Notes: generated by a model not told the origin, from the letters alone. DNA of 63,661 nucleotides, filler included, from an uncultured bacterium (GCA_964448115.1; 3 parts of 3 records of this genome joined end to end with filler, not necessarily neighbours in it), one strand, 5' to 3'; positions 22,788 through 63,048 are shown, counted from the first letter of the whole stretch. Numbers and translations are program-made.

Positions 22788-22887
22788 NNNNNNNNNNNNN
22801 NNNNNNNNNNNNNNNNNNNNNNNNNNNNNNNTTAATTAATTAANNNNNNNNNNNNNNNNNNNNNNNNNNNNNNNNNNNNNNNNNNNN
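22788..22887. other. Artificial contig-joining linker
   Basis: 44 N + TTAATTAATTAA (stops in all six frames) + 44 N = 100 nt. Confidence 0.97.
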
Positions 22888-25039: not shown

Positions 25040-25149
25040 GCGAACATTATACCAGATTTGCAGCGATGATCTAAGATCGGCAAGGTTCAACCAGACCGAT
25101 GTCCGGTGATTATTTCAGTTTTACGATAACCGCTGAATCCTATGTAACC

Positions 25150-39172: not shown

Positions 39173-40171
39173 CTAATAGCGAAGATGCGATTCGAGGTTA
39201 TGAATTCGCCTTCCACAAACCCGGCAAGCCCCATGAAGCTCTTGCCTTCCCATTAGACCGCCTCGAATCGCTTGCATAGCTTTGCCGTTCCATAGCTCCT
39301 CGAGACTCTGCTCGCTAAGATTCCCCAGGTAACATGTGTATTTATACGGCTTGAAACAGGCGCTTGAACAAGCCAGCACATCGCCGTTCGACTTTATCAA
39401 CATCGACTCGAATGGTTCATTGCACCAGCCAGCATCATCACCAAAGCTCGGTATCCGTAACTCTATGCCCAGTTTCTGGCTCAGATTCATCGCCTCCTGG
39501 AGCTTACTTTTAGAATATTCGATATCGCAAAATAGTGAAGCATCCTTTAATTCAGGCGTGTAGGCATAAATATGGTTAAGTTCGACTTTCTTTATTCCGA
39601 GATCCAAAGCAGAATGTAGTATTTCAGGCAAGCTGGATAACGACTCTATGGTGGGGGTGAAGTGAAGCTGTGCTTGAGGTTCGATCAGCCCGGCAGCCGA
39701 TCGATAGCGGTTCAGCCGATCGATAGCCTGGTAAATACTCTGAAGCTCCGGCGCCAGCCAATCCTTGGTTTGACCGAGCAGATATCCAGTAACCGAGACG
39801 ATCAGCTTACTGACGCCAGACTCAAGCAGGGATAGGGTGGTATGCTCATCGAGCATCGAGTAATTGGTGTGTACAAGAACATGGCATCGATGCCTGCTGC
39901 ATGTCTCGAAGAAGCTCCAGATATTCTTTGCCATAAGCGGCTCGCCGGCGCCGACGAAATCTACTGTGGGCGAGGATTCAAGCAGCGGCTCCAAGCCGGC
40001 AAAGGTCTCAATGCTCATATCTTGCGGCGGATTTTGGGCTTTATCCCAGTGGGTTCGGAAGCAGATTCGACAGCTTAGATTGCAGCGATTGGTCGGCTCT
40101 ATATAAACGATGCTCGGAGGTGCATCGATGATTATGCCATCTGGCAGTTGCTCTTCTTTGCCCGAAGCCAT
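39173..40171 (-). CDS. Radical SAM protein with a SPASM/twitch domain
   Basis: CNLSCRIC, GEPL; C-terminal C..PF...G.V..C, LGN...SLEE.WNG and CRVC. Confidence 0.88.
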   Translation of the reverse strand: MASGKEEQLPDGIIIDAPPSIVYIEPTNRCNLSCRICFRTHWDKAQNPPQDMSIETFAGLEPLLESSPTVDFVGAGEPLMAKNIWSFFETCSRHRCHVLVHTNYSMLDEHTTLSLLESGVSKLIVSVTGYLLGQTKDWLAPELQSIYQAIDRLNRYRSAAGLIEPQAQLHFTPTIESLSSLPEILHSALDLGIKKVELNHIYAYTPELKDASLFCDIEYSKSKLQEAMNLSQKLGIELRIPSFGDDAGWCNEPFESMLIKSNGDVLACSSACFKPYKYTCYLGNLSEQSLEELWNGKAMQAIRGGLMGRQELHGACRVCGRRIHNLESHLRY

Positions 40172-43893: not shown

Positions 43894-44913
43894 CTAAAGC
43901 CTTATCTCTGTGCAAAAGAGCAAGTATGGCTCGATAACCTCGATTCGGCTGCCATTGGTTGCCCACTGTATATCGAACAGCTCCGTGCTCGGCGCTCCGA
44001 GATACTCCCAGATCATGCTATAAAACCCCTTTTTCAGGCTTAGTTTGATGATCCTTTCATTCATGGACTCGCTTTTTATCAATATTCTGCTGCCGGCAAT
44101 GTTCACCTCGCTGCTGCCAGCGCCGCGGATTACGAAGCTGTAGTTGCCATCGGCTGGGATCAGTATATCTGCCCTGGCTACGATCGCCAGCATCTCGTCC
44201 TCAGCCGACTTGTAGTCTCCTGGCGAGAAAGCCCAGGTCGGCAAGGTATCGTGGAGGGTCTCGCTTTTGATCGCTGAACGAGCTGCCAGCGAGACTCCGT
44301 GCTGGTTATTGAATATCGCCCTTGGGATGAGCAGCGCCTGGTAGTATCTTGTGCCTTTGTGTTCGATGTACTGGTGATTCGCACCGGGAAAAGCCTTGCG
44401 GAGGCGTTTTAGCGAGGCGGTCTGTTTGGCATCTAAATCACTTATCACCGCAATGCCTTTTTTCAGCTCAGGCTGGTGAAGGATGGTAAGTATATCATCG
44501 GTTGTGGTGATGCTGTGAATCGGCAATCCGAGCCGTGAGCGTGAGCGAGCGGTCAAATACTTGGGGAGTCGGCTGGCATCGATATTGAGCAAGTATATCT
44601 TGTAGTCGGGTGCCAGGCGCTCTATTGCCTCACCAAGTGTTTTTCGCGCCAGCGCGGCATCTCGATCCCCACAGGCGACGATTGCAATGCCGACAGCTAT
44701 AATCGCAACCAAGGCAAGTAGGGGCGATTGATTATTCGCCCCTACGGTCCCCTCTCCATCTGGGAGAGGGCTAGGGTGAGGGAGGAAAGACACACCCCTA
44801 AATCCCCTCTTGATAGAAGGGACTTTTCGGAGCATCCCCTCTTGAGAGGGGTGGCTCGCCTCCCGACTTTGTCGGGACGGGGTGGGTAATTCCTGCCCTA
44901 TCCATTCAATCAT
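43894..44913 (-). CDS. Putative lipoprotein with a C-terminal PA14-like beta domain; start uncertain
   Basis: Hydrophobic stretch plus lipobox-like IVA-C; C-terminal PADGNYSF..G..S.V.I.G...L.KG.Y....EY...W. The ATG at 44913 is preceded by AAGGAAGGA. Confidence 0.6.
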   Translation of the reverse strand: MIEWIGQELPTPSRQSREASHPSQEGMLRKVPSIKRGFRGVSFLPHPSPLPDGEGTVGANNQSPLLALVAIIAVGIAIVACGDRDAALARKTLGEAIERLAPDYKIYLLNIDASRLPKYLTARSRSRLGLPIHSITTTDDILTILHQPELKKGIAVISDLDAKQTASLKRLRKAFPGANHQYIEHKGTRYYQALLIPRAIFNNQHGVSLAARSAIKSETLHDTLPTWAFSPGDYKSAEDEMLAIVARADILIPADGNYSFVIRGAGSSEVNIAGSRILIKSESMNERIIKLSLKKGFYSMIWEYLGAPSTELFDIQWATNGSRIEVIEPYLLFCTEIRL

Positions 44914-45015
44914 GTCCGTCCTTCCTTTCATGCCCGTCCTCCGCATGCCATACCCATTTACCCCCTGTCATTCCCGTGCCCCCCTTCTGTCATTCCCGTG
45001 CAGGCGGGAATCCAG
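44718..45015. repeat. Stack of several unrelated REP-like palindromic repeats
   Basis: GTAGGGGCGA-N8-TCGCCCCTAC (44718-45); CCCTCTCC-N5-GGAGAGGG-CTAGGGTGAGGG (44750-82); CCCCTAAATCCCCTCTTGATAGAAGGGACTT (44795-825); CCCCTCTTGAGAGGGG (44836-51); CCCGACTTTGTCGGG (44862-76); TGTCATTCCCGTGC twice (44966 and 44988, the second continuing AGGCGGGAATCCAG). Confidence 0.85.
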
Positions 45016-45060: not shown

Positions 45061-45524
45061 CTATTCACAGCCGATTTCATCGCGAAGATTGAGTAGTACA
45101 TCTAAATCCGGATGTTGGATCTTCTGTGCAAGTTCTATCGACTCATTCAGAGCAGAACAGGCATCATTAACTTTGCCCATCGCTTTAAGTACTATTGCTT
45201 TCCACCATAGATAACCCACAAGCGCAAACCAATGTTGTATTCCGATGCTTTTTTCAATGCTCTCATCAAAGCATTTCAAGGCATTATCATATTTTTTTTG
45301 TTCAAAATAGACCGCGCCGATGTTGTTGAGGCTGCCGGCGATCTCTTTTGGTATATTAAGTTTCCTATAAATCTCCAGCGCCTGGTTGTAATAGGAAAGC
45401 GCCTGGTCGTATTGACCCAAAGATTTATAGACCAAGCCGATGTTGTTGAGGCTGGTGGCGATATCCTGTGGTATATCTAGCTTCCTTCTTATCTCCAGCG
45501 CCTGGTTGTAATAGGATAGCGCCT
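45061..45524 (-). CDS. C-terminal fragment of a TPR-repeat protein (5' part lost at the contig end)
   Basis: 40-aa repeats (ALSYYNQALEI..KL.IP..IA.SLNNIG.VY) encoded by 120-bp near-direct repeats; the frame is open up to the N linker. Confidence 0.85.
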
Positions 45525-45624
45525 NNNNNNNNNNNNNNNNNNNNNNNNNNNNNNNNNNNNNNNNNNNNTTAATTAATTAANNNNNNNNNNNNNNNNNNNN
45601 NNNNNNNNNNNNNNNNNNNNNNNN
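45525..45624. other. Artificial contig-joining linker
   Basis: 44 N + TTAATTAATTAA + 44 N. Confidence 0.97.
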
Positions 45625-45797: not shown

Positions 45798-46163
45798 TTA
45801 CATACCTTGAGAAACCTCCTGCAAGATATTATCACCTAATAATCCCATATCCAGGTAACGCCTGCCACTTACCCATTCATCGCTTATGTCCATAACCACA
45901 GATGTGCATAACCTTATACACGATGCCTCGTTGGCAAAGATCCAAATAACCCTACCGCGTCTCTTGATCTCCTGGTGAACTCGCTCTAAGCAATTAGTGC
46001 TCCTAATACGCTTTCTATGCTCTTTGGGAAAACTGTAACATGAAAGAGTCTCTTCGCCATCAACTTCTAGCTTGTTTGCAAGCCTAGGCAATATCTCACC
46101 ATACTTATCAACAAGACCATAAATCCGTGATATAGCAAGAACCTGCCTCATCGAGAGGTTCAA
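45798..46163 (-). pseudogene. IS256 (Mutator)-family transposase, C-terminal remnant
   Basis: FPKEHRKRIRSTN.LER..QEIKRR.RV..IF.NEASC.RL and W..GRRYLDM are typical of IS256 C-termini; the N-terminal part, including the first catalytic aspartates, is missing. Confidence 0.88.
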
Positions 46164-46260: not shown

Positions 46261-49200
46261 CTAGTCGCATGTTTCATCACACCCGATATCCGCCGAACCT
46301 CCGCCGCAGGGTCTCGTATCTCCCTCGAAGTCATCCGAAGGATAGCCTAGCCATTCCCATGCGGCTCCTCTTGCCGGCGAGTCAGGCTTTAGCCTTATCC
46401 ATCCATAAGCATCGGCGTAAACCTTCGGATCCTCCCGGATTGCGTGATAATGGTCTCCCTCGTAGTCGGAAGGAGTGGGTGCATCTGTCTTTGGCTCCAA
46501 GAAGTTATTGATGAATTGGATGTCGTGCGAAGCATAAGGAGATACATACACCTGGTCGGAAAGACTTAAGTTGATTACACTTTTGAATTTGAACTTCCTA
46601 CGGTTGCCATAAAAGATGTTGTGATAAGCATCTCCAGAACAATCTTCGGTTCTCAGTCCGGCTCCAGTTGCTGTAACCAATCCGGTGACAAAGGTCATGT
46701 GTGTCTCATTTTCCCAAACCGTTGAGTTTCTCAGCGTAAAATTACAGTTCTTCAGATAAAGACCGCCTCCCCTGCTCCATAAATACAGCGCTGCATATCT
46801 CTTGACTGCAACACGGGGGTCTTTTCCTAGATTTGCATAGAAGCAGTCGTTCTCCAGGTAGCAATCAGCCCCTTCCGAATATAGACCGCCTCCCTTCTTC
46901 CACACCCTGTTTTTATAGAACAACGATTTTCTCACCGTAACGCCATCCTCGCTCAAGTAGATGCCTCCCCCGTGGTGGAGAGCAAGGTTGTCGTAGAAAA
47001 CGCAATTCTCCACCGAGATCTGGCTTCCTCCCAGCTTGGCTCCACCTCCGTAACCTCCACCAAACATCCACAGGAAGAATGGCGGTTCGAGTCGCCCGCT
47101 AGAGTTGCCGTGGAAACGACAGTCATGAATAAGCAGCGGCTCCTCCGTTTCCGCCCATAATCCGCCTCCCCTATCAGCAGCGTAGTTCACCCTGAACACG
47201 CAATTCTCTATTACTCCACCGCCTCCCTGCACTAACATTCCCCCGCCGTCTGCCGTAGGTGTCTGTCCATTATTAAGCGCCACATTCGCTTTTATATGGG
47301 TATCCTTCAGTGTGAAAGTGCTGTAGGCGGAGTAAATGCCTCCGCCTTCGTCATAGGCGCGATTGTGAGGATCGGGTGTGTTGTCTCCGATGTTCGTTCC
47401 GCCCTCTATAATATCAACTACATCGTAGTCTTCAGACCTCTCCGGATTGTCGTCGCGCATAAGTCCAATTTCGCAATTATCAACTGTCCAATTGGAATTC
47501 TCGAAGTAAAGGGCGCCTCCCTGCTGCATTGCCGTGTTCTCAGTAAACCAGCAGTTCTTGATCTCCGCTTCTCCGTCCTTCACATAAACTGCGCCGCCCT
47601 TGTTGGCAACACAACTCCTAATTTCGGAGTTCAACAAGACAAGACTTGCGTTATCCACCCTAATGCCGCCTCCGATACCGCTGCTCCCGCTTAAGATACG
47701 AAATCCGTCAAGCCCAGCAGGATAATGGGAGAAGTTCTCCAGCCTGAAGATGTTGGTTTGAAGATTGGCGTTATAATATACATAGTTATCAGGGTCATCT
47801 ACCTCTATATAGGAACTCTCCCTCAGATAGATAGGAAATGAAGAAGGATCAGCGTAAGTTCCCAGCACGCTTATCCTGTGGGTTTCTGAACGAATGTCAG
47901 CAAGAGCGTCCTCTATGGACGAGAAATCGTATGCGGGATATGGGTCTGGACCTATCCAAAGATAATCGGAAAATTCGTATGCTCCCATATCGGGGATTCT
48001 CCTTGCGGGGACTCTATGCTGGAACGGTCGCTGAGCTCCCGTAAAATCTTCAGTGAGAGAACTGCAAAACTGTACTGCGTCAATGCAGGGAGATACAGGA
48101 CGCAACCGCAGGTCTCCGGCGAAATCCATCATGAACCATGGGTTCTTGTCCATATTATGATCCAGGGCATCGCCATACCCTCCCTCCACCAGGGAACAAG
48201 ATATCTCCGGCATCTGGGCGCTGGTGGGATATGCCACCTCGTTGGGTATGTCTCCCCACATAATGGAGTTGTATATGCTTCCCCTCGGGGCATCATTGTA
48301 TAGCGCTCCACCATTGCTTGCTTCGTTTCCGTTGAAGGTACAATGTGTGAAAGAGTAACCGGCAAGAGCGGTAACAAAACTATAAACCGCTCCTCCGTGG
48401 TGGTCGGCTGCGTTTCTCCAGAAGACAAGGTTCTCAAAATCATAATATCCCCACCACAAGAAGAGCGCTCCGCCGGAAGCGCAGGAATGATTTTCCCGGA
48501 ACTCGCATCGCTTCATGTCCAGGTGAGCCGAGGTCTCCGCCGAGGCGTGAGCATAGATCGCCCCGCCGTTGTCCGAAGCGCTGTTCCCGGTGAAGACGCT
48601 CCTTTCTACACTAGCAAAGCTGTTCCAATAGTATGCTGCTCCGCCGAACCCGCCGTGGTTGTCCTGGAAGGCGCATTCATAGACCTCTGAACCGCCAGAG
48701 TAGTCGGCGAGCGCCCCGCCAGCGCTGGAGTTGTTCGAGGTGAAGGTGCAGTCCCTTATCACCGGGTCCCCGTACTGGTTGGCAAGCGCCCCGCCGGTTT
48801 TCGCATCATTGTATTCGAAATTGCAATTCTCGATAACCGGGTCTCCAGCGTAGTTGAATATTGCGCCCCCATAAGTAGTTGTACCGGTTCTTCTCGCCTT
48901 GTTGTAAAGGAATTCGCAATCCCTGACCGTGATCTCCGAGTTGCTTATATACAGGGCTGCCCCGTTGGCGTTATACAGGAAGCCGTACATGATTCGCAGC
49001 CCTTGAATGGTGGTGTTCAGGTCATGGATCCCTACCGCCTTGAATAAGGGCGCCCCGATGGCTTGCGAGGGATGCCCCTGGATGGTGGGCTTGGTGGAGG
49101 TATGGCTCATCAGTTTCACGCCCGGCACCAGTTCCATCGGTATATTCTCGTTGAACCAATAATAGGTTCCATCAGCTACGACATGGATAGTCTTTCGCTG

Positions 49201-52200
49201 GTCAGCCCCGGATCGAACCGCATCCAGCGCCTCGGAAATGGTGCGATAATCCGCGTTGCTCCAGGTGCGCGCCACCAGGATATAATCCGGGGTCGGGGTC
49301 GGGGTGGGTGTATTGGTCGGGGTTGCTGTCGCAGTTGGGGTCGGCGTGGGTGGCGGTTGTGAGAGGGAATAATGCACCAGGACAACATCCTTGCCTCCCG
49401 AATGCGGTTTCCCGGCGATGCTGCTTCCGGCATACCCCGTTATGTAGAACTCGCCGCTTCCAACGAATGTTACCGCCTTGCCGACATCGGAGCCTTCTGA
49501 ACCCACGAGATGTGTACAGAGCCTGACGCCATCCGAAAGCCTGAATCTCATAATGAAGATGTCGCTGCAATATCCCGATGCCGGGCTCTCCCCGTCTATA
49601 GAGCCGCTGACCTTACCAGTTATCACTGCTGTATTTTGATCGGCGACCGCGATGCCGAAAGCCTTGTCCTCGTAATTGGCGGGTCCCGATGTATATGCCT
49701 GATTCCACACCATGTTGCCGTCGGCTGAATACTTCAGGATGAGGAGATCACCTGCATGTTCCCTTTGGCTGTCCTCTCTCGAACTCGTCCATCCGCTTAT
49801 GTAAACCGAGCCATCAGCATCCAGGTCCACCCCAGTTCCCTCCTCATCGAAAGGAAGCCCGTACTGCCTGAGCCAGGTTAGGTTTCCGTCCAGGTTTACC
49901 TTGGCCAAGTAGAGGTCGGACATCCCGCTATTGCCGGCTCCTCCGAGATCACCCTTGGTAAAGCCGGTTAGGTATGCCACGCCCTCGGGGTCATTCACCA
50001 CCAGGTCGTAAGGTTCGTCGTCAGCAGAAGAGCCTAACAGCTTGGTCCAAATATTATTTCCACTGGAGGTGAACTTCCTGATAAAGATATCTCTTCCGCC
50101 GGCGGAGGCGAGTCCGTCCATCGTACCGGTCATGTAGCCTACGACATAGATATTGTCGCTTCCATCGGCAGCCACCGCTCGCCCCTCCACGCGGTCAGAA
50201 CCGGCGAAGTTGACTCTCCATTGCAGATTGCCCGCGGTATCATAAGCGCCAAGAAAGCCTTGCGGGTTGTGTATGCCCAAAGTGTAATCTACTCCTGTTA
50301 CATACATGGCGTCATTCGCGCTATTAAGGGTAATCCCCTCGCATCTCGCATCATCCCAGGTGACCATCCATCTCAGTTGCTGATCAGGGCTGTAGCTGGC
50401 AATCAAGGCGTCATCCCCGTAAACACCCGCAAGGTAGCTGTTTTTAACCGAGTCCGCGGTAACATCGCTTCCCCAGTCTGTCCAGGAGGTGCCAAGCATG
50501 TTGACCGCGTAAAAGGCTTCCTCCGGCTCGCACTTCGGTGTCGGGGTAGGAGTCGGCGTCGGCGGCAACGGCGTCGGCGTGAAGTAATCGGAGGACTCGC
50601 GAATCAGGAAGTTGCTCCCCCCCACCGAACCGCAGACCTTCAGGAAAGCGGTGCAGTAACCATGAGAAGCGACGCCGACGCTCATCTCCGAGGCTTCGTG
50701 CCCAGAAGCATTGCCCCTCAGCCATTGAAGGGTTCCGTTGCGATCATAAAGGGCGAGATACCAATCCTCCCAGCCGTGATTCATATACCCCTCCGCGTCT
50801 CCATATAGGCTTCCACTCAAGAACACATGACCGCTTGCATCAACCGAAGTAGAGTAGGCATAGACCTTATGGTCATAATCCTGGCTGCCGGCTAGGAACC
50901 TTGTCCATTGCAAGTCGCCATGCAGGTTGTACTTGGCCAAGAACGCCGCCGGCATACAATCGACTCCTTGCGCGGTAGTCATGGTAAATCCGCACAGATA
51001 AAGCTCGTTCCGGGTGTTGTCCACATCGATCCCATAACCACGCTCTTCCATCCCGTCGCAAAGAGTACAGGACCCCGAACAACCGAGATCGCTCAAGACA
51101 TTCATCCATTGAAAGCAGCCCTCGGCATTGTATTTCGCAATTACGATATCCTCGCTGCCGTCTCCAGCAAAGTTTTCCGTATATCCCGCCATGTAGATGA
51201 AACCAGAGGCGTCAACACAAATATCCAGGGGGACAACATACTCCGGATTGCCAGCCAGGGATGGCAGTATCTCCCATAACAAGACGCCGTCGGGAGAGTA
51301 CTTAGCCAGGACTCCGAGCTGAGCGCCAACCACTATATCTCCCTGGGGAGTTACAGCTACCGCAGTGCCTAACTGGGTTTGGAAAAAGGTCTCCGGCAGG
51401 TACCTTATCCATTGAAGCTCCAAAGCGTTGTTATACTTGGCTAGGAAAGCGTCCTTGCCGTTTTGATGGGTTGCCCCTCCAAGGCTCCCCTCGGTCCAGC
51501 CGACTATGTATATCTCGTTGGGGGACGCGATAGAAACCGCCACGCCCTGATCGTGCTGAGGACTTCCGAGGAGTCTCTCGTTGAGTTTGTTTCCGTCGGA
51601 GTCGAACTTCGAGATTACGACATCCGATTTGCCCACTGTCTCCTCGAAATCGGTGTCCTCCGAGGTACTACTCACGACATATACGAACCCGTCGGGAGAA
51701 ACAGCCACTCCCCTGCCTACATTCAGGTGGTTGGCGGTAAGGGATCGGGTCCAGATATCTGAGCAATCCGCTACCGTCGGGACAGGAGTCCTCGTGGGGG
51801 TGGGAGTGGGGGTTACTTCCACCCCGCATAGACGCAGATCATCAATGTTCCAACCGATGTGCCCCGTGTACATGTTTTTCATGTCGGAGGTAGGACCAAT
51901 ACTCCACCGGATATAGGTGGAGGCTTCATTATCGGCTGTTCTCCCCAGCGGCACCTCGAAATCCGTCCAGGAGGTGTCGCATCTCTCCAGCATACCATCT
52001 AGCCGGGGATAGGCGTTGTCCCAGACGGTCTCCCAAAAGCTTCCGTCTGCCGAGACATCTATCCTTGCGAAATGCAACGAATCCTCTATGGATGGAAGTC
52101 CGATCCACGCCTTGAAGGACAATACTATGTCATAGTAATCGCTACAGTTGATGGGGGATGTCGTTAGAGTATATATGTTGGAATCAGGATTGGCGTATAA

Positions 52201-54600
52201 ACCATCGTAGCTTAAATCATAGCCGTAAACAAAGCTACCGCTGTACGCCGAGTTAGGATCGTAGCAATCCGATTGACCGCCTCCCTTGCCTTGGGGAGCG
52301 TTAAACTCCCATTCACCATTCATCGTCCAGCCTGGGTCGCTGTCGAGGTTCTCGGAGAAGAAACAGATGGTTGGAATGGGGGTGGGTGTCGAAGTGGGCG
52401 TAGGGGTGGGAGTAGGCGGGATGGTGGTGAATTTCGAGAAGAAGATGTCTTGACCCCCCTTGTTGACGCCGCCGAGATCGCCGTATGTATAACCAGCCAG
52501 GAACGCCTCGCCCATGGCGTTGACGGCGATGGCGCAACATTTTTCGTTCTCGCCCGTTCCCAGCAATCCGGTGCAGACACGCGTACCGTCCAGGGTGAAG
52601 CGTGCTATGAATGCGTCCTTAGCCCCATTGTTAGGCTTCGCGTCCAGGTCTCCCTCGGTAAAGCCTCCCACGAATAGTCTTCCGCCCCCTATGCCAATTG
52701 ACTTACCCCATTCAGCATGGCTTGTTCCAAAGATTCTAGTCCAGGTTACATTGCCATCCATAGAGAATCTACATGCAAATGCATCGGTTTCTCCATGGGC
52801 GCTTTCTCCCAAGAAGCCGCCTTGGCTGAAACCAGCAAGGTAAGGATTGCCTCCCGCATCCAACGCAATGGCGAGTGCCCTGTCATCCTGGGGACTCCCG
52901 AAGAGATTGCCCCATACAAGATTTCCATCAGCGTTCAACTTGATCAGGAAGGCGTCCTCTCCACCGCTGTTGATTTCTTCCAAAAGATCGCCCCGGCTGC
53001 CTCCGCACAAGTAGAGATAACCGGAACTGTCCGCCGTTATTCCGGTCGCCTCCTCCGAGGAGGCAGTCCCGAACAGCTTTACCCACAACAGGGAGCCATT
53101 GTTGGAGACGCAAGCTACGAAAATGTCCTTTTCGCCGGCGTTCTGCACATTGTCGAGATCGCCCCAAGTATATCCGGCAAGGAAGATCCGTGAGCCGAAA
53201 GCTGTAACACAACGTGCTTCTTCGTCCTTGTTCGTCCCGAGCAAGAGGCTCCACTGGAGGTCTCCTGCCTGGCCATATTTAAGTAAAAAGGCATCCCTAG
53301 CGCCGTTATTGGCATTGCCTGCGAGGTCTCCCTCCGTGTAGCCGACGAGGAGTAGGTTGTTGTATTGATCCACCGCGCTTGCGAGGGCTTCTTCGTTGGA
53401 GGCAGTCCCTGTCATAAGTGTCCAGAGCTTTTGGGCATCGCTATTGAACTTGGTTATAAAGATATCCTTTCCCCCCTGGTGAGGCTGATCCTCGATAGAG
53501 GTCGAGGCGCCGCCCGCCAGGTAGATAAAGTCGTCCGCAGAGATGGAGAGGGCTAAGCCTAAGTCGTCGAGATACATCCCGTACTGGCTGGTCAGGTAAA
53601 AACCCTCGTTCGCAACGCAGGCAAGGGTGGGGGTAAAGGTGGCGGTAGGGGTATTGCTAGGAGTCGGGGTTATGCTGGGCGTGGGAGAACTCGTGGAGGT
53701 ATTAGTGGGAGAGGGAGTGTTGGTCGGGCTCCAAACCGAGAAGATCATTTGGTGACTATTCTCCTCACCGGCGGTATGAGAGGAGTCGAATATCCTGACA
53801 TAGACATCCGAAGGGTCTGGCATACCGCTCGGAAGCGTTATAGCCAGGCAATCCCCTGAAATATTCCCGCAATAAGAGCTATACAAGAGCACCCTGTTCT
53901 CATCGGCGATGGGGTCCTCGTAATAATACGCCTGCATGTTGAGATCGAGGCTTGGGGATATGTTGGTCATCTCGAAATTGTAGGTATAGGATGGATGGGC
54001 GGAAAACTTGAACCAATCCTCGTCATCGGAACTGCACAGGTAATTAGTTAGCGGGGTATCCGGCGGAAAGGCGTCGAGGTTGACGGCTTGCGAAGCATGA
54101 TCATTGGATTCATAGTCATCCCTATCGAGGCAAGAGAGGGGATCAAGAAGAATAAGAGGTATGGTGGTAGTAGGCTCCGTTATCTCCACGGGTTGTAAAT
54201 CCTTCCGGTAGTAACCTGGAGCTGAGGCTGTCAAGCGATAAGTACCGGCAGGGATATCGCCAAGAGAGTAGTTTCCGCTCGCATCGGTGATCGTCTCTCC
54301 TATGATCGCTGCGTAGGCAAGTCCTATTACCACGAGTGCTGGCGCGAGAAAAACGAGAAAGTACTTCATGCTGTACCTGGATCGCCAGAATAGATAAGTC
54401 AGGGTAGCAAGCAACAATAGCGCCCCGAGCAAGGTAAAACTCGGAACGGTGAAGGTTGTATCGAGGCTTATGGTTATGCCCGCGTGACCAGATGGATCAG
54501 CCACATCGGAGTATTGGGCTACGCCATTTACAGTTGCTCCTCGCGCATTCGATATCAAAAGAAAAGCAGTGAAAAGACAAATAAATAATGCTCTTTTCAT
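46261..54600 (-). CDS. Giant (~2780 aa) secreted multidomain surface protein: carboxypeptidase-regulatory-like domain, PPC-like domain, three SBBP beta-propellers, jelly-roll-like domain and two right-handed beta-helix regions, separated by Pro/Thr linkers
   Basis: Signal peptide MKR..ARGA after a GGAGG RBS (ATG 54600); TDASGNY..G.Y.L.A...GY; DDYE.ND..D.DWF; repeated D.F..K....G...W....G...D; five PTPT linkers; GGA(I/L/V)Y and FxxN repeats; L.L...SPCIDA...DMGAYEF. Confidence 0.88.
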   Translation of the reverse strand: MKRALFICLFTAFLLISNARGATVNGVAQYSDVADPSGHAGITISLDTTFTVPSFTLLGALLLLATLTYLFWRSRYSMKYFLVFLAPALVVIGLAYAAIIGETITDASGNYSLGDIPAGTYRLTASAPGYYRKDLQPVEITEPTTTIPLILLDPLSCLDRDDYESNDHASQAVNLDAFPPDTPLTNYLCSSDDEDWFKFSAHPSYTYNFEMTNISPSLDLNMQAYYYEDPIADENRVLLYSSYCGNISGDCLAITLPSGMPDPSDVYVRIFDSSHTAGEENSHQMIFSVWSPTNTPSPTNTSTSSPTPSITPTPSNTPTATFTPTLACVANEGFYLTSQYGMYLDDLGLALSISADDFIYLAGGASTSIEDQPHQGGKDIFITKFNSDAQKLWTLMTGTASNEEALASAVDQYNNLLLVGYTEGDLAGNANNGARDAFLLKYGQAGDLQWSLLLGTNKDEEARCVTAFGSRIFLAGYTWGDLDNVQNAGEKDIFVACVSNNGSLLWVKLFGTASSEEATGITADSSGYLYLCGGSRGDLLEEINSGGEDAFLIKLNADGNLVWGNLFGSPQDDRALAIALDAGGNPYLAGFSQGGFLGESAHGETDAFACRFSMDGNVTWTRIFGTSHAEWGKSIGIGGGRLFVGGFTEGDLDAKPNNGAKDAFIARFTLDGTRVCTGLLGTGENEKCCAIAVNAMGEAFLAGYTYGDLGGVNKGGQDIFFSKFTTIPPTPTPTPTSTPTPIPTICFFSENLDSDPGWTMNGEWEFNAPQGKGGGQSDCYDPNSAYSGSFVYGYDLSYDGLYANPDSNIYTLTTSPINCSDYYDIVLSFKAWIGLPSIEDSLHFARIDVSADGSFWETVWDNAYPRLDGMLERCDTSWTDFEVPLGRTADNEASTYIRWSIGPTSDMKNMYTGHIGWNIDDLRLCGVEVTPTPTPTRTPVPTVADCSDIWTRSLTANHLNVGRGVAVSPDGFVYVVSSTSEDTDFEETVGKSDVVISKFDSDGNKLNERLLGSPQHDQGVAVSIASPNEIYIVGWTEGSLGGATHQNGKDAFLAKYNNALELQWIRYLPETFFQTQLGTAVAVTPQGDIVVGAQLGVLAKYSPDGVLLWEILPSLAGNPEYVVPLDICVDASGFIYMAGYTENFAGDGSEDIVIAKYNAEGCFQWMNVLSDLGCSGSCTLCDGMEERGYGIDVDNTRNELYLCGFTMTTAQGVDCMPAAFLAKYNLHGDLQWTRFLAGSQDYDHKVYAYSTSVDASGHVFLSGSLYGDAEGYMNHGWEDWYLALYDRNGTLQWLRGNASGHEASEMSVGVASHGYCTAFLKVCGSVGGSNFLIRESSDYFTPTPLPPTPTPTPTPKCEPEEAFYAVNMLGTSWTDWGSDVTADSVKNSYLAGVYGDDALIASYSPDQQLRWMVTWDDARCEGITLNSANDAMYVTGVDYTLGIHNPQGFLGAYDTAGNLQWRVNFAGSDRVEGRAVAADGSDNIYVVGYMTGTMDGLASAGGRDIFIRKFTSSGNNIWTKLLGSSADDEPYDLVVNDPEGVAYLTGFTKGDLGGAGNSGMSDLYLAKVNLDGNLTWLRQYGLPFDEEGTGVDLDADGSVYISGWTSSREDSQREHAGDLLILKYSADGNMVWNQAYTSGPANYEDKAFGIAVADQNTAVITGKVSGSIDGESPASGYCSDIFIMRFRLSDGVRLCTHLVGSEGSDVGKAVTFVGSGEFYITGYAGSSIAGKPHSGGKDVVLVHYSLSQPPPTPTPTATATPTNTPTPTPTPDYILVARTWSNADYRTISEALDAVRSGADQRKTIHVVADGTYYWFNENIPMELVPGVKLMSHTSTKPTIQGHPSQAIGAPLFKAVGIHDLNTTIQGLRIMYGFLYNANGAALYISNSEITVRDCEFLYNKARRTGTTTYGGAIFNYAGDPVIENCNFEYNDAKTGGALANQYGDPVIRDCTFTSNNSSAGGALADYSGGSEVYECAFQDNHGGFGGAAYYWNSFASVERSVFTGNSASDNGGAIYAHASAETSAHLDMKRCEFRENHSCASGGALFLWWGYYDFENLVFWRNAADHHGGAVYSFVTALAGYSFTHCTFNGNEASNGGALYNDAPRGSIYNSIMWGDIPNEVAYPTSAQMPEISCSLVEGGYGDALDHNMDKNPWFMMDFAGDLRLRPVSPCIDAVQFCSSLTEDFTGAQRPFQHRVPARRIPDMGAYEFSDYLWIGPDPYPAYDFSSIEDALADIRSETHRISVLGTYADPSSFPIYLRESSYIEVDDPDNYVYYNANLQTNIFRLENFSHYPAGLDGFRILSGSSGIGGGIRVDNASLVLLNSEIRSCVANKGGAVYVKDGEAEIKNCWFTENTAMQQGGALYFENSNWTVDNCEIGLMRDDNPERSEDYDVVDIIEGGTNIGDNTPDPHNRAYDEGGGIYSAYSTFTLKDTHIKANVALNNGQTPTADGGGMLVQGGGGVIENCVFRVNYAADRGGGLWAETEEPLLIHDCRFHGNSSGRLEPPFFLWMFGGGYGGGAKLGGSQISVENCVFYDNLALHHGGGIYLSEDGVTVRKSLFYKNRVWKKGGGLYSEGADCYLENDCFYANLGKDPRVAVKRYAALYLWSRGGGLYLKNCNFTLRNSTVWENETHMTFVTGLVTATGAGLRTEDCSGDAYHNIFYGNRRKFKFKSVINLSLSDQVYVSPYASHDIQFINNFLEPKTDAPTPSDYEGDHYHAIREDPKVYADAYGWIRLKPDSPARGAAWEWLGYPSDDFEGDTRPCGGGSADIGCDETCD

Positions 54601-54642
54601 GAGAATCCTCCCTCTCATTCAAGCCTTACGCACAACAATCCA

Positions 54643-54676
54643 GGAGGAATCCTTTTTGAAAAAAGGCTTATCCTCC
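54643..54676. repeat. Imperfect palindrome upstream of the giant gene
   Basis: GGAGGA-AT-CCTTTTT-GA-AAAAAGG-CTTA-TCCTCC. Confidence 0.5.
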
Positions 54677-54947
54677 CAAATCTCCAGGTATGTTTTCCAT
54701 ACTTACTTTTCTTGAGACCAATTCAACGCTCCTAAAGGATAGTAAACTCTACAATCTCGATGACTCCAAGGGTGGAGACAACTTATTTTCCAAGTAACCG
54801 TTCACAGTTAAATAATACTATAACACCATATAACCCGTCAAGCTAAAGGTTCGTAATCGTTTTTTAATTCCGACATAAGAAATGAAAATATACCTGGGAG
54901 GTTAGTTGAGAGCAAAATATTTCGGACAGAGCTGGGGTTGTTCTGGG

Positions 54948-55156: not shown

Positions 55157-57352
55157 ATGAATTTTCAAAGGAACGCACTGGCCATAACTTTAGTTTCAAT
55201 TGCTATTACCTATACATTTATCTGCCTGGCTTACGCCGAGTTCGAGGTGTTATGCGAGCTTAATGTAGGCGGCAGAGGTTACAGCGATGTTGCGGTCGAT
55301 CAAGATTATATCTACCTATGTAGCCAGGAGGGATTCCTGGAGGTCTTCACCAGGACTGAACCATTGGCTTGCGTAGGCTTCATAGACCTGAGAACTGATG
55401 ATGAAATTGATGACATGGAGATCGCCTTAGACGATGACTATGCCTATATCACCAGGGGGAATGCGGGTATATACATAGTCGATATCTCCCAGCCGTCTGC
55501 TCTAAAGGTCGTCTCCTGGATCGGCGCGCAGTACGCTGACGGTTGTTTTATCAGGGATGATCATCTTTTTGTCTGCAATGAAATGTTGCTATCTATATTC
55601 GATGTTTGTGATCGATCATCTCCGAGCCTACTAAGCGCCATAGCCTTCGATTACTGGACAGAGAATGTAGCTGTTACCGGGGATTATGCTTATGTAGTCG
55701 GCTCTCCGGCAGGGCTTTTCATCGTAGATATCTCCGATATAACCGAGCCGGTGATCGTAAACCATCTATTCGAGTACACCGGCATCTGCTCGCTTCAGAT
55801 CGAGGATGGATTGGCATATCTATGTACGGTAATTCAACCGCCGATTGTGCTAGATATCAGGGATGATCCAGCGTATCCGCAAGTCTTATATCATTCCACA
55901 GAATCGGTTGAGGAAGAACATAATGAACTAACGTATGCGGATGGCTATGTATTTATCGCCGATGAAGAAGGTCTAAAGATCTACGATGCCACGGATCCAT
56001 CAAACCTGGATCTTATACTCACCGAACACGAGGAGCTAAGCTTTAGCCTCAGCGTTGCCGCCGGGGATGGAGAGCTATTTTTTTCGAGTAAAAATTCTGG
56101 TTACTTCAGGATATTTAATTACCTGACGCTTCCCGATGCCCTTCAGGAGCTGGCTACTTATCGAAATCCTAGCGGCATCCTACAAATAGGGCTTAGCGAA
56201 GACTATCTAGTGATTCTCGACAGCACATGGCAGGTTTCAGTCTCAGTCTATGACATAAGCGATCCAACCATGCCAGTTAACCTGAGTAGAACCGAGTTGA
56301 CCGAATCTATACACCCATACATGTCTGTAGATCAGGGTCGCGTGGCTATCGTAACCGAGGATAAATTGTCTCTTTATCAGATCACAGCGCAGGGGACTTT
56401 GTCCGAGACTTTCAGCACCACTTATTATAATTACATTCCTTGCTGTTATCTGAGGAGGGATTATCTTATCGCTAATCATTATTGGGATGAAACAAAAAAT
56501 ATTGATGTTTTTTATGTTGAAGATTTTTCAGCTCCTGAATTGGTGCTACAGTTTAAGGCAGCACATGGCCAAGTATTTCTTGGTTATTTGAATCATGATA
56601 TTTACTATATTCTAGAGCCGTCCTTGTTAAATCAGCATTATTTGAACATAATAAATGTATCGGATCCAAGCAATATTCTTTATAAAGCCATTAACATAGG
56701 ACAACTTTATCCCATGTATTTATTGACCGATATGATGGTAAACAATCAATTTTTATATATAGGTACCACTTATGGGGGGATTCAATTGTATAACCTTGAT
56801 GATCCCATGTCCCCCGAATATATGAACGATATCGATGTCGATCTGTGGGTCAATGAGTTTGCTCTGGTTGGAGAGGACATATATCTAGTTAGTGGCCATA
56901 CTGAGGGAGATAATTATGGCATTTATTTGATGGATCTAAGCCAGCAGGGATTTCCGATTGTTCTAACAAGCCAGAAAGGCATATACCGTTATCTCGAAGT
57001 CAAAGACGATATTGCGATCACCGGCGATGAGAAGCATTTGCATATCCTGCGCATTCCGCTGCCAGAGCCTAATATTCACATCGGTGGCTACTTGGATACA
57101 AACCTTGAGGCTGCAACTGGCGGGAAGCTGCGTATTTTCGGGCTTGCACCAAATGGATTGAAGATCATCCGCGATATCAGACTGCTCGATAGCAGTTATA
57201 GTCCAATCGGCATTAGCCTGGACAACGGGTATAGAGAATTTTACATACCACCCGGTATGGTTCCACCAGGCAATTACCTGCTGTTGCTGCAAGCTTATGA
57301 CACCATGGGGCGTACAAGTTGTCCCTTCCCCTATCTTTGCGTGGGGGAATGA
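55157..57352 (+). CDS. Secreted LVIVD-repeat (beta-propeller) protein with a distinct C-terminal domain
   Basis: Signal peptide ending AYA; repeated YAY(I/V)....GL.IVDIS.P units; acidic composition. Confidence 0.85.
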   Translation: MNFQRNALAITLVSIAITYTFICLAYAEFEVLCELNVGGRGYSDVAVDQDYIYLCSQEGFLEVFTRTEPLACVGFIDLRTDDEIDDMEIALDDDYAYITRGNAGIYIVDISQPSALKVVSWIGAQYADGCFIRDDHLFVCNEMLLSIFDVCDRSSPSLLSAIAFDYWTENVAVTGDYAYVVGSPAGLFIVDISDITEPVIVNHLFEYTGICSLQIEDGLAYLCTVIQPPIVLDIRDDPAYPQVLYHSTESVEEEHNELTYADGYVFIADEEGLKIYDATDPSNLDLILTEHEELSFSLSVAAGDGELFFSSKNSGYFRIFNYLTLPDALQELATYRNPSGILQIGLSEDYLVILDSTWQVSVSVYDISDPTMPVNLSRTELTESIHPYMSVDQGRVAIVTEDKLSLYQITAQGTLSETFSTTYYNYIPCCYLRRDYLIANHYWDETKNIDVFYVEDFSAPELVLQFKAAHGQVFLGYLNHDIYYILEPSLLNQHYLNIINVSDPSNILYKAINIGQLYPMYLLTDMMVNNQFLYIGTTYGGIQLYNLDDPMSPEYMNDIDVDLWVNEFALVGEDIYLVSGHTEGDNYGIYLMDLSQQGFPIVLTSQKGIYRYLEVKDDIAITGDEKHLHILRIPLPEPNIHIGGYLDTNLEAATGGKLRIFGLAPNGLKIIRDIRLLDSSYSPIGISLDNGYREFYIPPGMVPPGNYLLLLQAYDTMGRTSCPFPYLCVGE

Positions 57353-57370
57353 GATATCCATGCGGATAAG

Positions 57371-57720
57371 TTAATGTCGCTTCTTGCCGGCACGCGAAAG
57401 CCATAGCGTCCAGATAAATCCAAAGAACAAAAGTATCCCGCCAAGTATGAACAATTGCCTGGTGATGTCTATCTGAGGTAGATCCAATGCCCGGCTTCCG
57501 CTCGCTGCGCTGGTAGCCGTCGCCAGGATGAATATGGCAAGCTCGGTTGAAAATACTCTTTCCCTCATATCGGCTCTCACCGAAACCATCAGCAACCGGG
57601 TAGTGAATACCCACCTGATGCCATTACCGATGCCTCGAAGCAATATGCCTGAAAGCACGATCGCGAAGCTGGACATGGTCGAGATCACCAATAATCCGAA
57701 TACTGAGATGATACATGAGA
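57371..57720 (-). pseudogene. C-terminal fragment of an MFS transporter
   Basis: Only about four TMs with RG.G.G..WVF...LL...V....R.RVF; no credible N-terminal half or start. Confidence 0.55.
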
Positions 57721-57813
57721 TGGAGCGGTCAGAGAATAAAGAAGCCAGATATGCTCGACATCTTTCACAACGATGGTTCCATCTGATAAGGATTTGTTGA
57801 TGATAAAGGCTTT

Positions 57814-58578
57814 TCAGATACACGATAGCAGTTCTTTGAACCTGTCCGCCGAGGCGGGGCTGTAGCCCTCGTAGTGATTGTTAAAGAAGCCATAGACCCT
57901 CAAGCCCATCTTTAGATATTCGTTCACCATCTTAGACCAGTATTTAAGATCCCCTAGTCGATCTTTCTTGATTCTATCAAATGGCGGTTTCAGTCCCCTG
58001 ATATCCCCAAGCCACCTTATGTAAACGAAATCAGCCTTCATATCGCGAGGCAGGCTGCTTATCCTGGGCATCCAGGGATGATCGACCAGGCAGTAGGTCA
58101 TATTGTCTCGATCGCATAGCCTTTGTATGCCATGCGGTATCCAGTTCTTGTTGCGAACCTCGATGACATACTCCAATGAATCGGGCAGTTGATCTAAAAA
58201 GTTTTTGAGTAAATCTTTCTTCGAGGGGGAGAATTTATAAGGGAACTGAAATAATATGCATCCAAGTTTTTCATTTAAGTTTCTTGCGATCCCTAAAAAT
58301 TGATGTAATACGCCCTGACAATCGACTAGTTGCTTATCGTGGGTGATGATACGAGGAGCCTTGAGACAAAAGATAAAGCCAGGCGGAGTGATCTCATACC
58401 ATCGTTTAAGGCTCTGTGCTTTGGGGATTGCATAGAATGTGCTATCCACCTCGACAGCATTGTATCTCTTGGCGTAATAAAGAAGGAATTCGCCGGCTTT
58501 GGTGCCCTTTGGATAGAATACTTGCAGCCACTCCTTATAGCTCCATCCAGAGGTACCTATGAATAGCTGATCATCCAT
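57814..58578 (-). CDS. DUF72 (YecE-like) protein
   Basis: IGTSGWSY..W...FYP, VE.DSTFY, KAPR.ITH, LFQFP, E.R...W, Y.RW.G and FFNNH..G motifs. Confidence 0.92.
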   Translation of the reverse strand: MDDQLFIGTSGWSYKEWLQVFYPKGTKAGEFLLYYAKRYNAVEVDSTFYAIPKAQSLKRWYEITPPGFIFCLKAPRIITHDKQLVDCQGVLHQFLGIARNLNEKLGCILFQFPYKFSPSKKDLLKNFLDQLPDSLEYVIEVRNKNWIPHGIQRLCDRDNMTYCLVDHPWMPRISSLPRDMKADFVYIRWLGDIRGLKPPFDRIKKDRLGDLKYWSKMVNEYLKMGLRVYGFFNNHYEGYSPASADRFKELLSCI

Positions 58579-61068: not shown

Positions 61069-63048
61069 TCATATTATCCCTAGCGATTCTGCATCTGCTG
61101 CCTGACCGTCAAGGTGGATGCGCAGCCATAGCTCAAGGATAATCAGATTCCACAACATAAAATAGTCGTCCTTGCCCGCGAGGAACTTCTTTTTGAGCAC
61201 CTCTATCTCCGGATAATTGAACATCCCGCGCCTGGTTACCGATTCCTTGGAGAGCACTCCATCGATAAGCCCCCGCAACGGTCCCTTGAGCCATATTTTA
61301 AGCGGAAATATAAACCCGCGCTTGGAGCGAGTAAGAATCTCTTCGGGCACCAAGCCGCGTAAGGCTTTTCTTAATATGTACTTTGTTAGCGGTGGTTGCT
61401 TTAGATCAGCGCTCCCTCTCAGCTTAAGCGAAGCTGGTAGATTGAAGGCGAACTCGACTAGCTGGTGATCCAGCAATGGAACGCGCACCTCTAGCGAACA
61501 AGCCATGCTCATCGAATCGGTATCCCTAAGCAAAAGGTCAGGTAGCTCATATTCAAGCATCATTTGGCTCACTTGCTGGATATCATCGAGACATGGCTCC
61601 TTCAGGTCGTCTTTGTCGCCAGGTTTATCTTCATCGTTTTTTACAGTTAAAAGGTGAGTTTTAATATCTTGTGCGATTCCACCAAATGCCATCTCGTGAT
61701 ACCATGAAGGTGCGAATAAATCTCTTATTTTTCGGGCACCCATGACTCTTCTGAGGTCATGGTACGCCTGGCTAAAATCGGATGAAACTAAGAAGCTCCT
61801 CCAGGTGCTCGCATAGTCGTGCCCCTTTATGCATCGCAAGCCGAATAGTAACATTTTCCTTAGCCAGATAGGCGCTTTGGAAATCCGATCTGCCATTTCC
61901 CTGCGCCTTATCATCTCCGCGAACCAGGGATATCCAGCAAATAACTCGTCCCCGCCAGTGCCTGATAGGGCTACCTTTACCTTTGAGGCAGCTAACCGGC
62001 TGACAAAGTACTCGTTGAGTCCGTCCCCGGTAGGGAAATCCATGTATCTTACTATCCTGGGCAGCTCGTTCAGCACATCGCGCCAGGTGAGGGTAACCTG
62101 CGTATGATCGCTACCATAATGCCGGGCGGCGATCTCAGCATATCGCTTCTCACCGAAATCATTGGCATCCAGGTCGTCGATGGAAAAATCGACCGAGAAT
62201 GTCTTCATCGGCTGAGAGCTATGATGGCTCATCAAGGCTACCAGGGCAGTCGAGTCTATGCCCCCGCTGAGAAAAGCACCCAGCGGTACATCGCTGACCA
62301 GGTGTTCCATGGTTGCCAACTCCAGCAATGCCATCAGACGCTCAACCGCCTCATCTTCGCTCATTGTAGGCTGATTGGTCGCCTTTAGGCTCCAGTAACT
62401 CTTCATGCAAAGGTTATTGATGTCATCGGTTTTCAAAATAAGCATCTTCGCAGGCTCCAACGCCTTGATCCCCTTGTACATGGTAAAGGGAGACGGTATG
62501 GCAGGGAAGGAGATATAGTGAAATAAGGCTTGTGCATCCAATTCCTTGGGTATGAGACCAGAAGCAACCAGGGCACCTATTTCAGAGGCAAAGATAAAAG
62601 TATCGCCTTTGTGATAATAATAAAGGGGCTTTATGCCCAGACGATCCCTTGCCAGAAGCAGGGTCTTGTTCGGCTTATCCCAGATAGCCAGGGCGAACAT
62701 GCCTTTTAGCCGCTCAAGGAAGTCGAATCCGTACTGCTCGTAAGCGTGAACCAGCACCTCGGTATCGGAGTTGGTATAGAAGCGATGTCCCGCATCGGAC
62801 AATTGATTGCGGAGACTCTTATAGTTGTAGATCTCGCCGTTGAAAATGGCGATGATGCTTTTATCCTCGTTGAAGATAGGCTGAGCGCCGGTCTCAAGGT
62901 CGATTATAGCCAACCGACAGATCCCTAAAGCGATGTCTGCATCTTCATAGTAGCCATCATCGTCCGGACCGCGATGACTCATAGCTAAAGTCATAGCTTT
63001 CACCGCCTCCAAGGATGGTTTAACTGCGATGCCGCCTACCCCGCACAT
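61069..63048 (-). CDS. asnB: Asparagine synthase (glutamine-hydrolysing)-family amidotransferase
   Basis: MCG N-terminus, HRGPD, RLAIID, FNGEIYN, RDRLGIKPLY, LSGGIDS, SGTGGDELFAGY, D..SM..SLEVRVP and K.GF..P motifs. Confidence 0.95.
   Translation of the reverse strand: MCGVGGIAVKPSLEAVKAMTLAMSHRGPDDDGYYEDADIALGICRLAIIDLETGAQPIFNEDKSIIAIFNGEIYNYKSLRNQLSDAGHRFYTNSDTEVLVHAYEQYGFDFLERLKGMFALAIWDKPNKTLLLARDRLGIKPLYYYHKGDTFIFASEIGALVASGLIPKELDAQALFHYISFPAIPSPFTMYKGIKALEPAKMLILKTDDINNLCMKSYWSLKATNQPTMSEDEAVERLMALLELATMEHLVSDVPLGAFLSGGIDSTALVALMSHHSSQPMKTFSVDFSIDDLDANDFGEKRYAEIAARHYGSDHTQVTLTWRDVLNELPRIVRYMDFPTGDGLNEYFVSRLAASKVKVALSGTGGDELFAGYPWFAEMIRRREMADRISKAPIWLRKMLLFGLRCIKGHDYASTWRSFLVSSDFSQAYHDLRRVMGARKIRDLFAPSWYHEMAFGGIAQDIKTHLLTVKNDEDKPGDKDDLKEPCLDDIQQVSQMMLEYELPDLLLRDTDSMSMACSLEVRVPLLDHQLVEFAFNLPASLKLRGSADLKQPPLTKYILRKALRGLVPEEILTRSKRGFIFPLKIWLKGPLRGLIDGVLSKESVTRRGMFNYPEIEVLKKKFLAGKDDYFMLWNLIILELWLRIHLDGQAADAESLGII

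Follow-up and report, generated by a model that had tools for sequence, protein, structure and literature searches.

The 63,661-nt stretch of DNA from an uncultured bacterium (GCA_964448115.1), called the window here, contains one open frame of 2785 codons (positions 46261–54618, minus strand, by translation of the window) that encodes a giant protein. Near the N-terminus of this protein there is a hairpin of two hydrophobic segments, which is placed by modelling between strands 2 and 3 of the first transthyretin-like domain. The reading favoured here, with confidence that is about evenly balanced, is that the hairpin is an N-terminal membrane anchor combined with a second export start. ATG 54600 is the likely start codon of the frame, because the sequence GGAGG sits 6 nt upstream. 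Among 32 gene starts inspected in the window, this Shine-Dalgarno (SD) sequence ranks with the strongest matches. Residue numbers run from the Met at ATG 54600 and the protein has a total of 2779 residues. The parts of the gene are as follows.

54607–54611, minus strand: SD sequence GGAGG, 5' of ATG 54600 (sequence reading).
54538–54600, minus strand: signal peptide 1, residues 1–21, MKRALFICLFTAFLLISNARG, with a putative cut after A-R-G and then A22 (translation).
54436–54537, minus strand: N-flank, residues 22–55 (ATVNG...ITISLDTTFTVPSF), two modelled beta strands, ending TFTVPSF (alignment and AlphaFold model).
54385–54435, minus strand: helix 1, residues 56–72, TLLGALLLLATLTYLFW, stop-transfer or tag-like (hydropathy scan and models).
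54364–54384, minus strand: basic loop RSRYSMK, residues 73–79, predicted to be cytoplasmic, holding the in-frame ATG 54369 (sequence).
54310–54363, minus strand: helix 2, residues 80–97, YFLVFLAPALVVIGLAYA, signal-peptide-like, with a putative signal peptidase I site A-Y-A/A, where the slash marks the cut (sequence).
54139–54309, minus strand: C-flank, residues 98–154, modelled as strands 3–7 of a CarboxypepD_reg (transthyretin-like) domain (PF13620, own profile and structure model).
46261–54138, minus strand: body, with a PPC-like domain, PT-rich linkers, SBBP beta-propeller repeats and right-handed beta-helix / PMP repeats (Pfam and translation).

The membrane hairpin

The insert from VPSF to AYA consists of residues 52–97 and is 46 residues in length. 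Both this length and the coordinates given in an initial annotation of the window (approximately 54447–54310) are exact when compared with the translation. The order of elements described there, i.e., signal peptide, beta segment, VPSF, helix, RSR and second helix, is also found, except that the residues Y-S between RSR and MKY had been left out. The AxA type of signal peptidase I layout that was noted after the second helix is present in the translation as A-Y-A/A.

Signal peptide 1 is modelled as helical at residues 2–20 by single-sequence AlphaFold and at residues 2–17 by alignment-guided AlphaFold2. The corresponding positions are 54–74 and 54–73 for helix 1, and 78–99 and 78–94 for helix 2. 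The loop between the two helices carries a charge of +3 and is flanked by hydrophobic stretches of 17–18 residues; the positive-inside rule predicts that RSRYSMK is cytoplasmic. The in-frame ATG 54369 in the loop is preceded by AGGT, which by SD comparison is as good as the SD sequences of many genes in the window.

Helix 2 ends IGLAYA/A, with G at -5, A at -3 and A at -1. There is a Pro in the core, and 18 residues extend from K79 to the site. From A98 onward the sequence reads IIGETITDASGNYSLGDIPAGTYRLTASAPGY... (also given as AIIGETITDASGNYSLGDIPAGTYRLTASAPGY...). Cleavage at this putative site is somewhat favoured over an uncut helix, because the end is a textbook one for signal peptidase I and because a neighbouring gene encodes a signal peptide that ends ICLAYA/E. 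The neighbour is a divergent gene (55157–57352, plus strand) for a 731-residue LVIVD-repeat beta-propeller protein; the LAYA end of its N-terminal signal peptide is the same as in helix 2, with different codons.

The body has Pfam matches to Beta_helix (8.7e-30), SBBP (4.8e-21) and Chlam_PMP (3.2e-13). One domain is presumably PPC-like, to judge from a sequence motif. The C-terminus of the giant protein reads ...GGGSADIGCDETCD and has no anchor, no helix and no basic tail. No peptidase family was listed in the body by the Pfam search, and a body of the M26 zinc metalloprotease type is thus absent.

Continuity of the open reading frame

The giant open reading frame (ORF) with its hairpin is one real gene. 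A contig of 5252 nt that was assembled from run X1 (word depth 11.2) spans positions 53900–54804 and shows 0 differences, 0 gaps and no joints relative to the window. X1 is a run of the sample that may be the source of the record, so that this contig does not represent independent DNA. It was built separately, however, and its match to the window therefore excludes an assembler join. Run X2 covers only positions 53907–54322 at low depth, and run X3 covers nothing. No RNA run is listed among those that contain the sequence.

It is highly improbable that the frame owes its continuity to an artefact, be it the loss of a stop, a frameshift or a chimeric join. Such an artefact would be in keeping with a metagenome-type record, with a protein collection that has a single copy (1 member, 1 contig), with the presence of the sequence only in runs of one sample and with the fact that rare variants are dropped by contigs. 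Against it stand the identical and unjoined X1 contig and the remaining two frames across the hairpin, which are closed and full of stops. In addition, the nearest contig break is at 54783–54804, approximately 180 nt 5' of the start codon and away from the hairpin. At this break the X1 contig over the gene stops, and the contig upstream has half its depth (5.6). The break is taken as a branch of the assembly graph, which is possibly due to the presence of two strains, or of the gene in two contexts.

A probable domain split between two flanks

The C-flank is a significant member of the CarboxypepD_reg family. The PF13620 match has an E value of 3.5e-10 and 40.5 bits with a 330-residue piece (cut-off 32.3), and 36.8 bits with the whole protein. 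The match spans only profile positions 19–75 of 82 and begins inside helix 2. Because it begins at profile position 19, the domain 3' of the hairpin is without its first two strands, and a complete seven-strand sandwich (profile positions 1–82) is not present in one continuous stretch. A profile hidden Markov model constructed here from 645 repeats gives 45 bits for the C-flank over positions 30–88 of 101.

The missing strands appear to be in the N-flank. Twenty-four single CarboxypepD_reg domains from four unrelated genomes were aligned by MAFFT with the 165-residue N-terminus; the loci of the first two scans for such alignment domains contained no CarboxypepD_reg copies. In 24/24 single domains the first approximately 28 residues fall on the N-flank, and the remainder is aligned with the C-flank. 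There is one gap, approximately 50 columns wide, and it lies exactly over FTVPSF...AYA. AlphaFold2 with this 24-domain alignment produced a model with a mean predicted local distance difference test (pLDDT) value of 82.7, with strands at residues 22–30 and 41–46, helices at 54–73 and 78–94, and further strands at 99–152. The N-flank block has pLDDT values of 96/88/85 and the C-flank values are 91–97.

A Foldseek comparison of the model with the 82-residue chain 5aq0_B, which is the transthyretin-like domain of human carboxypeptidase D, covers 135 columns with a template modelling (TM) score of 0.87 by target length and a root-mean-square deviation of 1.7. Twenty chains were found at E <= 0.001. 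The match spans both flanks, with residue ranges derived from column counts, and therefore N-flank and C-flank are part of one sandwich in the model. What distinguishes this from other CarboxypepD_reg and transthyretin-like domains (PF13620; 5aq0_B, 9hfj, 6hif_Y) is the 46-residue membrane hairpin between strands 2 and 3.

The two flanks were also docked as separate chains, the N-flank without an alignment and the C-flank (chain 2) with an alignment made here. The score was 0.54 compared with 0.19 for the best of 3 controls, and this is rated as weak support: the mark was reached by 58/80 solved complexes and 2/110 mismatched pairs, but at <= 0.60 by only 7/80 of the complexes and by both mismatches. 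The docking runs share at least 65% of contacts and the partner pLDDT is at least 60.

The proposal in the initial annotation that the flanks together represent one CarboxypepD_reg domain is thus moderately supported by the 24/24 alignment, the model and the Foldseek TM score of 0.87, whereas the docking result is weak and the profile statistics given below are borderline. That the N-flank and C-flank are halves of one domain is the best reading at hand, moderately supported by modelling and unproven.

A number of observations weigh against this reading or against the function proposed for the hairpin. With HMMER, the N-flank scores 4.7 bits with a profile of the N-terminal half of the domain and 50/1000 shuffles are equally good. 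With other sub-models, 224/2000 and 258/2000 shuffles reach the N-flank score; in the same sub-model test, placements of the N-flank elsewhere in the domain are no better than chance. A semi-global profile gives 10.9 bits, which is equalled by 72/1000 shuffles and by 2/152 natural windows of the giant protein. HMMER leaves the two flanks unjoined. When whole multi-repeat proteins were used in MAFFT, the N-flank was put on strands 3–5 of another repeat, in an alignment that spread the query over several repeats and was not used for the monomer fold. The good AlphaFold model depends on an alignment that already fixes the register, and single-sequence AlphaFold left the C-flank unfolded with a pLDDT of 53. 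The cleavage sites of the giant protein are assigned by eye only. The SD sequence AGGT of ATG 54369 is as good as in many genes, and therefore a product that skips the N-terminal part is possible. Furthermore, attachment to the inner membrane would make the protein periplasmic, an odd location for a beta-helix/propeller protein of 2700 residues. Finally, no protein, genome or metagenome contig, or plasmid was found as a relative that carries the N-terminal 100 residues, and conservation of or selection for the hairpin is without support.

This last point comes from several searches. With the first 330 residues as query against proteins of 1531–4874 residues, 9 matches were found at E <= 0.001 among 8000 scored candidates, self included; the best non-self match has 34% identity over 16% of the query. 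The first 100 residues gave no match at E <= 10 among 3168 candidates of 176–2000 residues, and none among 119 candidates of 55–175 residues. A phmmer search of the full library with 159 residues gave 3985 matches at E <= 0.001, and the best 150 of the 3985 are repeat proteins that match the C-flank. In one protein (P0031) the alignment starts at residue 3, but no hairpin is present at the N-terminus of P0031; three others (P0126, P0130 and P0134) are repeat proteins. Genome contigs (5 loci) and metagenome contigs (2 loci) show matches only from residue 105 onward. There was no match in plasmids by tblastn and nothing usable in a feature search of the ESM Atlas. An internal helix pair is found in 0/157 other CarboxypepD_reg-rich proteins returned by the searches, and by eye a single hydrophobic 19-mer inside a repeat is found in 5/157. 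A single sequence without relatives may equally represent a tolerated evolutionary accident.

Helix 1 as a candidate sorting signal

Helix 1 and its borders have the tripartite layout of a sorting signal, with a short motif, the membrane helix TLLGALLLLATLTYLFW and the basic cluster RSR. In this respect the segment resembles PEP-CTERM, IPTL-CTERM, MYXO-CTERM and LPXTG tags. Unlike these C-terminal tags, it lies 52 residues from the start (residues 52–75 of 2779, and not the extreme C-terminus), and it is recognised by no exosortase-tag model. Pieces of 330, 83, 56 and 33 residues gave no NCBIfam match at E <= 10 to PEP-CTERM, IPTL-CTERM or other exosortase-tag models, and PEP-CTERM and IPTL-CTERM were likewise absent in Pfam at E <= 1 or E <= 10, with the limitation that very weak matches may be dropped by the HMMER filters. 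Among the tag models, LPXTG_anchor alone reaches its cut-off, at 16.3 vs 15.9 bits and with the excised 33-residue piece only. This match covers profile positions 10–32 of 34, which correspond to the helix and basic tail and not to the motif.

The best full-length match related to a tag is NF033207 (midcut_by_XrtH), with an E value of 0.025 over residues 45–134 of the ORF. Its 14.6 bits are one third of the cut-off of 45, and the match covers mostly the hydrophobic helices. No exosortase, sortase or related enzyme is present among 40 scanned ORFs of the 63.7-kb window, and no segment similar to the candidate tag was found in other window ORFs by tblastn. The link to exosortases that was suggested in the initial annotation is therefore not upheld by the tag models or by the gene content of the window.

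In full, the idea is that TVPSF, helix 1 and RSR represent a mid-protein exosortase signal. An enzyme of the exosortase family would cut and transfer this signal, and signal peptidase would make its own cut at the end of helix 2. By then attached to a carrier, the peptide with the two strands would hold the body by complementation, or the two parts would be religated. This is very unlikely, although the layout is there, as is the weak NF033207 match, and the host is a diderm. Exosortases occur in diderm organisms. The organism is considered a diderm because window ORFs score above cut-off for KdsA, KdsB and the HldE kinase domain, and also for KdsC with the subfamily model. Besides the negative results of the model and enzyme searches, the VPS of the motif may be a decayed copy of DAS from a direct repeat (described below), and religation is without any support.

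Two genes in the window resemble partners of the XrtA system. An asparagine synthase gene (61069–63048, minus strand) has its best match to TIGR03108 (XrtA/PEP-CTERM amidotransferase), with 493.5 bits relative to a cut-off of 816.9. A membrane TPR protein (32989–35514, minus strand) matches PrsT TIGR02917 with 94.8 bits, relative to a cut-off of 312.2. As both are below cut-off, these similarities are faint hints of an exosortase-type polysaccharide locus.

Comparison with known systems

The initial annotation stated that no described system with this arrangement was known to its author. That statement does not hold in view of the layout in the passages cited here from Bek-Thomsen et al. (PMC3518915) and of a curated NCBIfam family for midcut-by-XrtH proteins. 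The elements that those passages (PMC3518915) give for the streptococcal zinc metalloproteases (IgA1 protease/ZmpA, ZmpB, ZmpC and ZmpD) are a signal peptide, an LPXTG tag, a pair of membrane segments and a further signal-peptidase site, and the second membrane segment is proposed there to be an additional signal peptide. The atypical tag at the N-terminus is reported to be needed for localisation, as cited in the same passages from Bender and Weiser 2006.

By analogy, the N-terminus of the giant protein is probably a Zmp-like anchor region. As in the Zmp proteases, there is a signal peptide (residues 1–21) followed within approximately 100 residues by a tag (52–55) and hydrophobic segments (56–72 and 80–97). 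The second signal-peptidase site of the Zmp proteases may have a counterpart in the putative site A-Y-A/A with G at -5 after helix 2, as read by eye. There are also differences. The motif is TVPSF and not LPXTG, and LPXTG_anchor is matched only in part, as noted above. The host is a diderm with lipopolysaccharide (LPS) genes for 3-deoxy-D-manno-oct-2-ulosonic acid (Kdo) and heptose, and because of this, anchoring to the wall by a sortase is not expected. The giant protein and the Zmp proteins are unrelated in sequence. SBBP propellers and beta-helix / PMP repeats make up the body, in place of an M26 protease. Unlike the Zmp layout as given in the cited passages of PMC3518915, the hairpin here appears to split a folded domain.

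The NF033207 family is, by its name, a case of an exosortase-type signal in the middle of a protein, as in the layout here. Midcut-by-XrtH genes lie beside exosortase H. No XrtH gene is present in the window; the neighbours of the giant gene encode the LVIVD-repeat protein, a transposase fragment and TPR proteins, with no exosortase. The score is also far below the family cut-off, and the NF033207 model has 175 positions with members that are presumably small, whereas the protein here has 2779 residues. No members of NF033207 were found in the 5 genomes and 14 control genomes searched. Literature searches for "midcut-by-XrtH", or for "XrtH" with "exosortase", found no papers, and none was found that joins internal or second signal peptides, sorting signals and polyproteins (at least 4 of 5 terms).

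Two further systems show the usual placement or layout of such tags. A Methylomirabilis S-layer protein represents the ordinary IPTL-CTERM case: it starts with a signal peptide and carries the tag at the C-terminus, at residues 285–312 (PMC8671808). MYXO-CTERM has a tripartite layout (PMC11980579).

Origin of the insert

A degenerate direct repeat flanks the insert. The two copies have a spacing of 162 nt and match at 11/13 nt.

54278–54290, unstranded: direct repeat copy 1, 13 nt, coding for ITDAS, just after the insert.
54440–54452, unstranded: direct repeat copy 2, 13 nt, coding for FTVPS, just before the insert.

Such repeat pairs are expected approximately 0.8 times per 501 nt by chance, and they are at both borders of the insert in only 7/300 shuffles, in a post-hoc test. 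If the direct repeat is real, VPS would have arisen from DAS by duplication and decay, which would point to an insertion scar and not to a sorting motif.

An origin of the insert from a mobile element was considered and rejected. There is no second copy of the insert in the window by blastn or tblastn and no meaningful inverted repeat at its borders, and its guanine-cytosine content (0.51) is like that of the surroundings.

The main rival explanation, which is possible if doubtful, is that the hairpin is an accident, either a recent in-frame insertion or a stop-loss fusion of a small gene for an anchored protein with the giant gene. The N-terminal part would then be translated but useless and the first domain would be a broken relic. 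In this explanation, helix 2 would function as an ordinary signal peptide for the working product, which would arise through cleavage or through a start at ATG 54369. The hairpin does read as the end of one gene and the start of the next, with a helix, RSR, two codons, MK and a signal peptide, and a single base change would turn the TAC codon after RSR into TAA or TAG. The internal ATG with its AGGT, the direct repeat, which is what an insertion scar would leave, and the singleton state of the protein, with no hairpin-bearing relative, also fit this explanation. So does a fragment of a Mutator-family transposase just past the 3' end of the gene, which suggests that the locus has been rearranged.

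Other properties argue against an accident. The SD sequence of the first ATG is stronger than that of the internal ATG, and signal peptide 1, both N-flank strands and helix 1 are intact. The flanks are still modelled as one domain, and they dock above controls, with weak support. An origin from two genes leaves unexplained why the N-terminal part carries exactly the two strands that are missing from the first domain of the body.

Neighbouring genes

The transposase fragment is a 121-residue ORF (45798–46163, minus strand) whose match to the Mutator-family transposase model PF00872 (E 7e-19) is confined to the final 85 positions of the model. It is followed by a 124-residue TPR fragment (45061–45435, minus strand). 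Both fragments adjoin blocks of N just past the 3' end of the giant gene, and this suggests a rearranged spot. The window has four blocks of exactly 44 N, at 22788–22831, 22844–22887, 45525–45568 and 45581–45624. These form two pairs with 12 bases between the members, and the second pair is approximately 640 bases downstream of the stop of the giant gene.

On the other side of the giant gene, beyond the LVIVD-repeat gene, is a 150-residue ORF (57371–57823, minus strand) with no family match. It ends with a hydrophobic helix and a basic tail (...FILGGILLFFGFIWTLWLSRAGKKRH) and is anchor-like. Two more ORFs have no Pfam or NCBIfam match; one has 717 residues and 7 predicted membrane helices (22937–25090, minus strand) and the other has 350 residues (43894–44946, minus strand). 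The genes for a B12-binding radical SAM protein with a TPR end (20849–22411, plus strand) and a SPASM radical SAM protein (39173–40171, minus strand) both stand among glycosyltransferase, O-antigen-ligase-like and LPS core genes.

Proposed working and significance of the hairpin

The sequence, the truncated PF13620 match and the possibility of modelling both flanks as one domain are direct results. The topology, the two cuts and the anchoring that we infer for the giant protein would operate in four steps. Signal peptide 1 would take the N-terminus through Sec and would be cut after ARG. Strands 1–2 (approximately 30 residues) would then be outside the inner membrane. Helix 1 would halt the transfer, with RSRYSMK kept in the cytoplasm, and helix 2 would restart export of the remaining 2682 residues. 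After a cut at the end of helix 2, the body would be either released or kept on a 76-residue membrane fragment by way of the two donated strands. In a diderm host, the body could leave the periplasm only after its release from the inner membrane.

The second of these outcomes would represent a natural split-domain anchor. After the cuts at ARG and AYA, the 76-residue fragment would hold the 2682-residue body only by donation of strands 1–2, i.e., by a non-covalent and potentially releasable tether. This more specific proposal is considered unlikely. As an added option within it, a cut at VPSF by a sorting enzyme could pass the two-strand peptide, together with the body, to a carrier.

If the reading of the hairpin as an anchor and second export start is correct, the layout of tag, hairpin and second signal peptide would be extended from streptococci to a diderm and to an unrelated giant protein. 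The hairpin would cut through a folded domain, which is not described for the streptococcal layout in the source passages cited above, and the fragment and body could be joined by strand complementation. This would provide a concrete model for the tethering of very large secreted proteins that have no C-terminal anchor. The arrangement also bears on the origin of in-frame hairpins of the type "end of gene plus start of gene".

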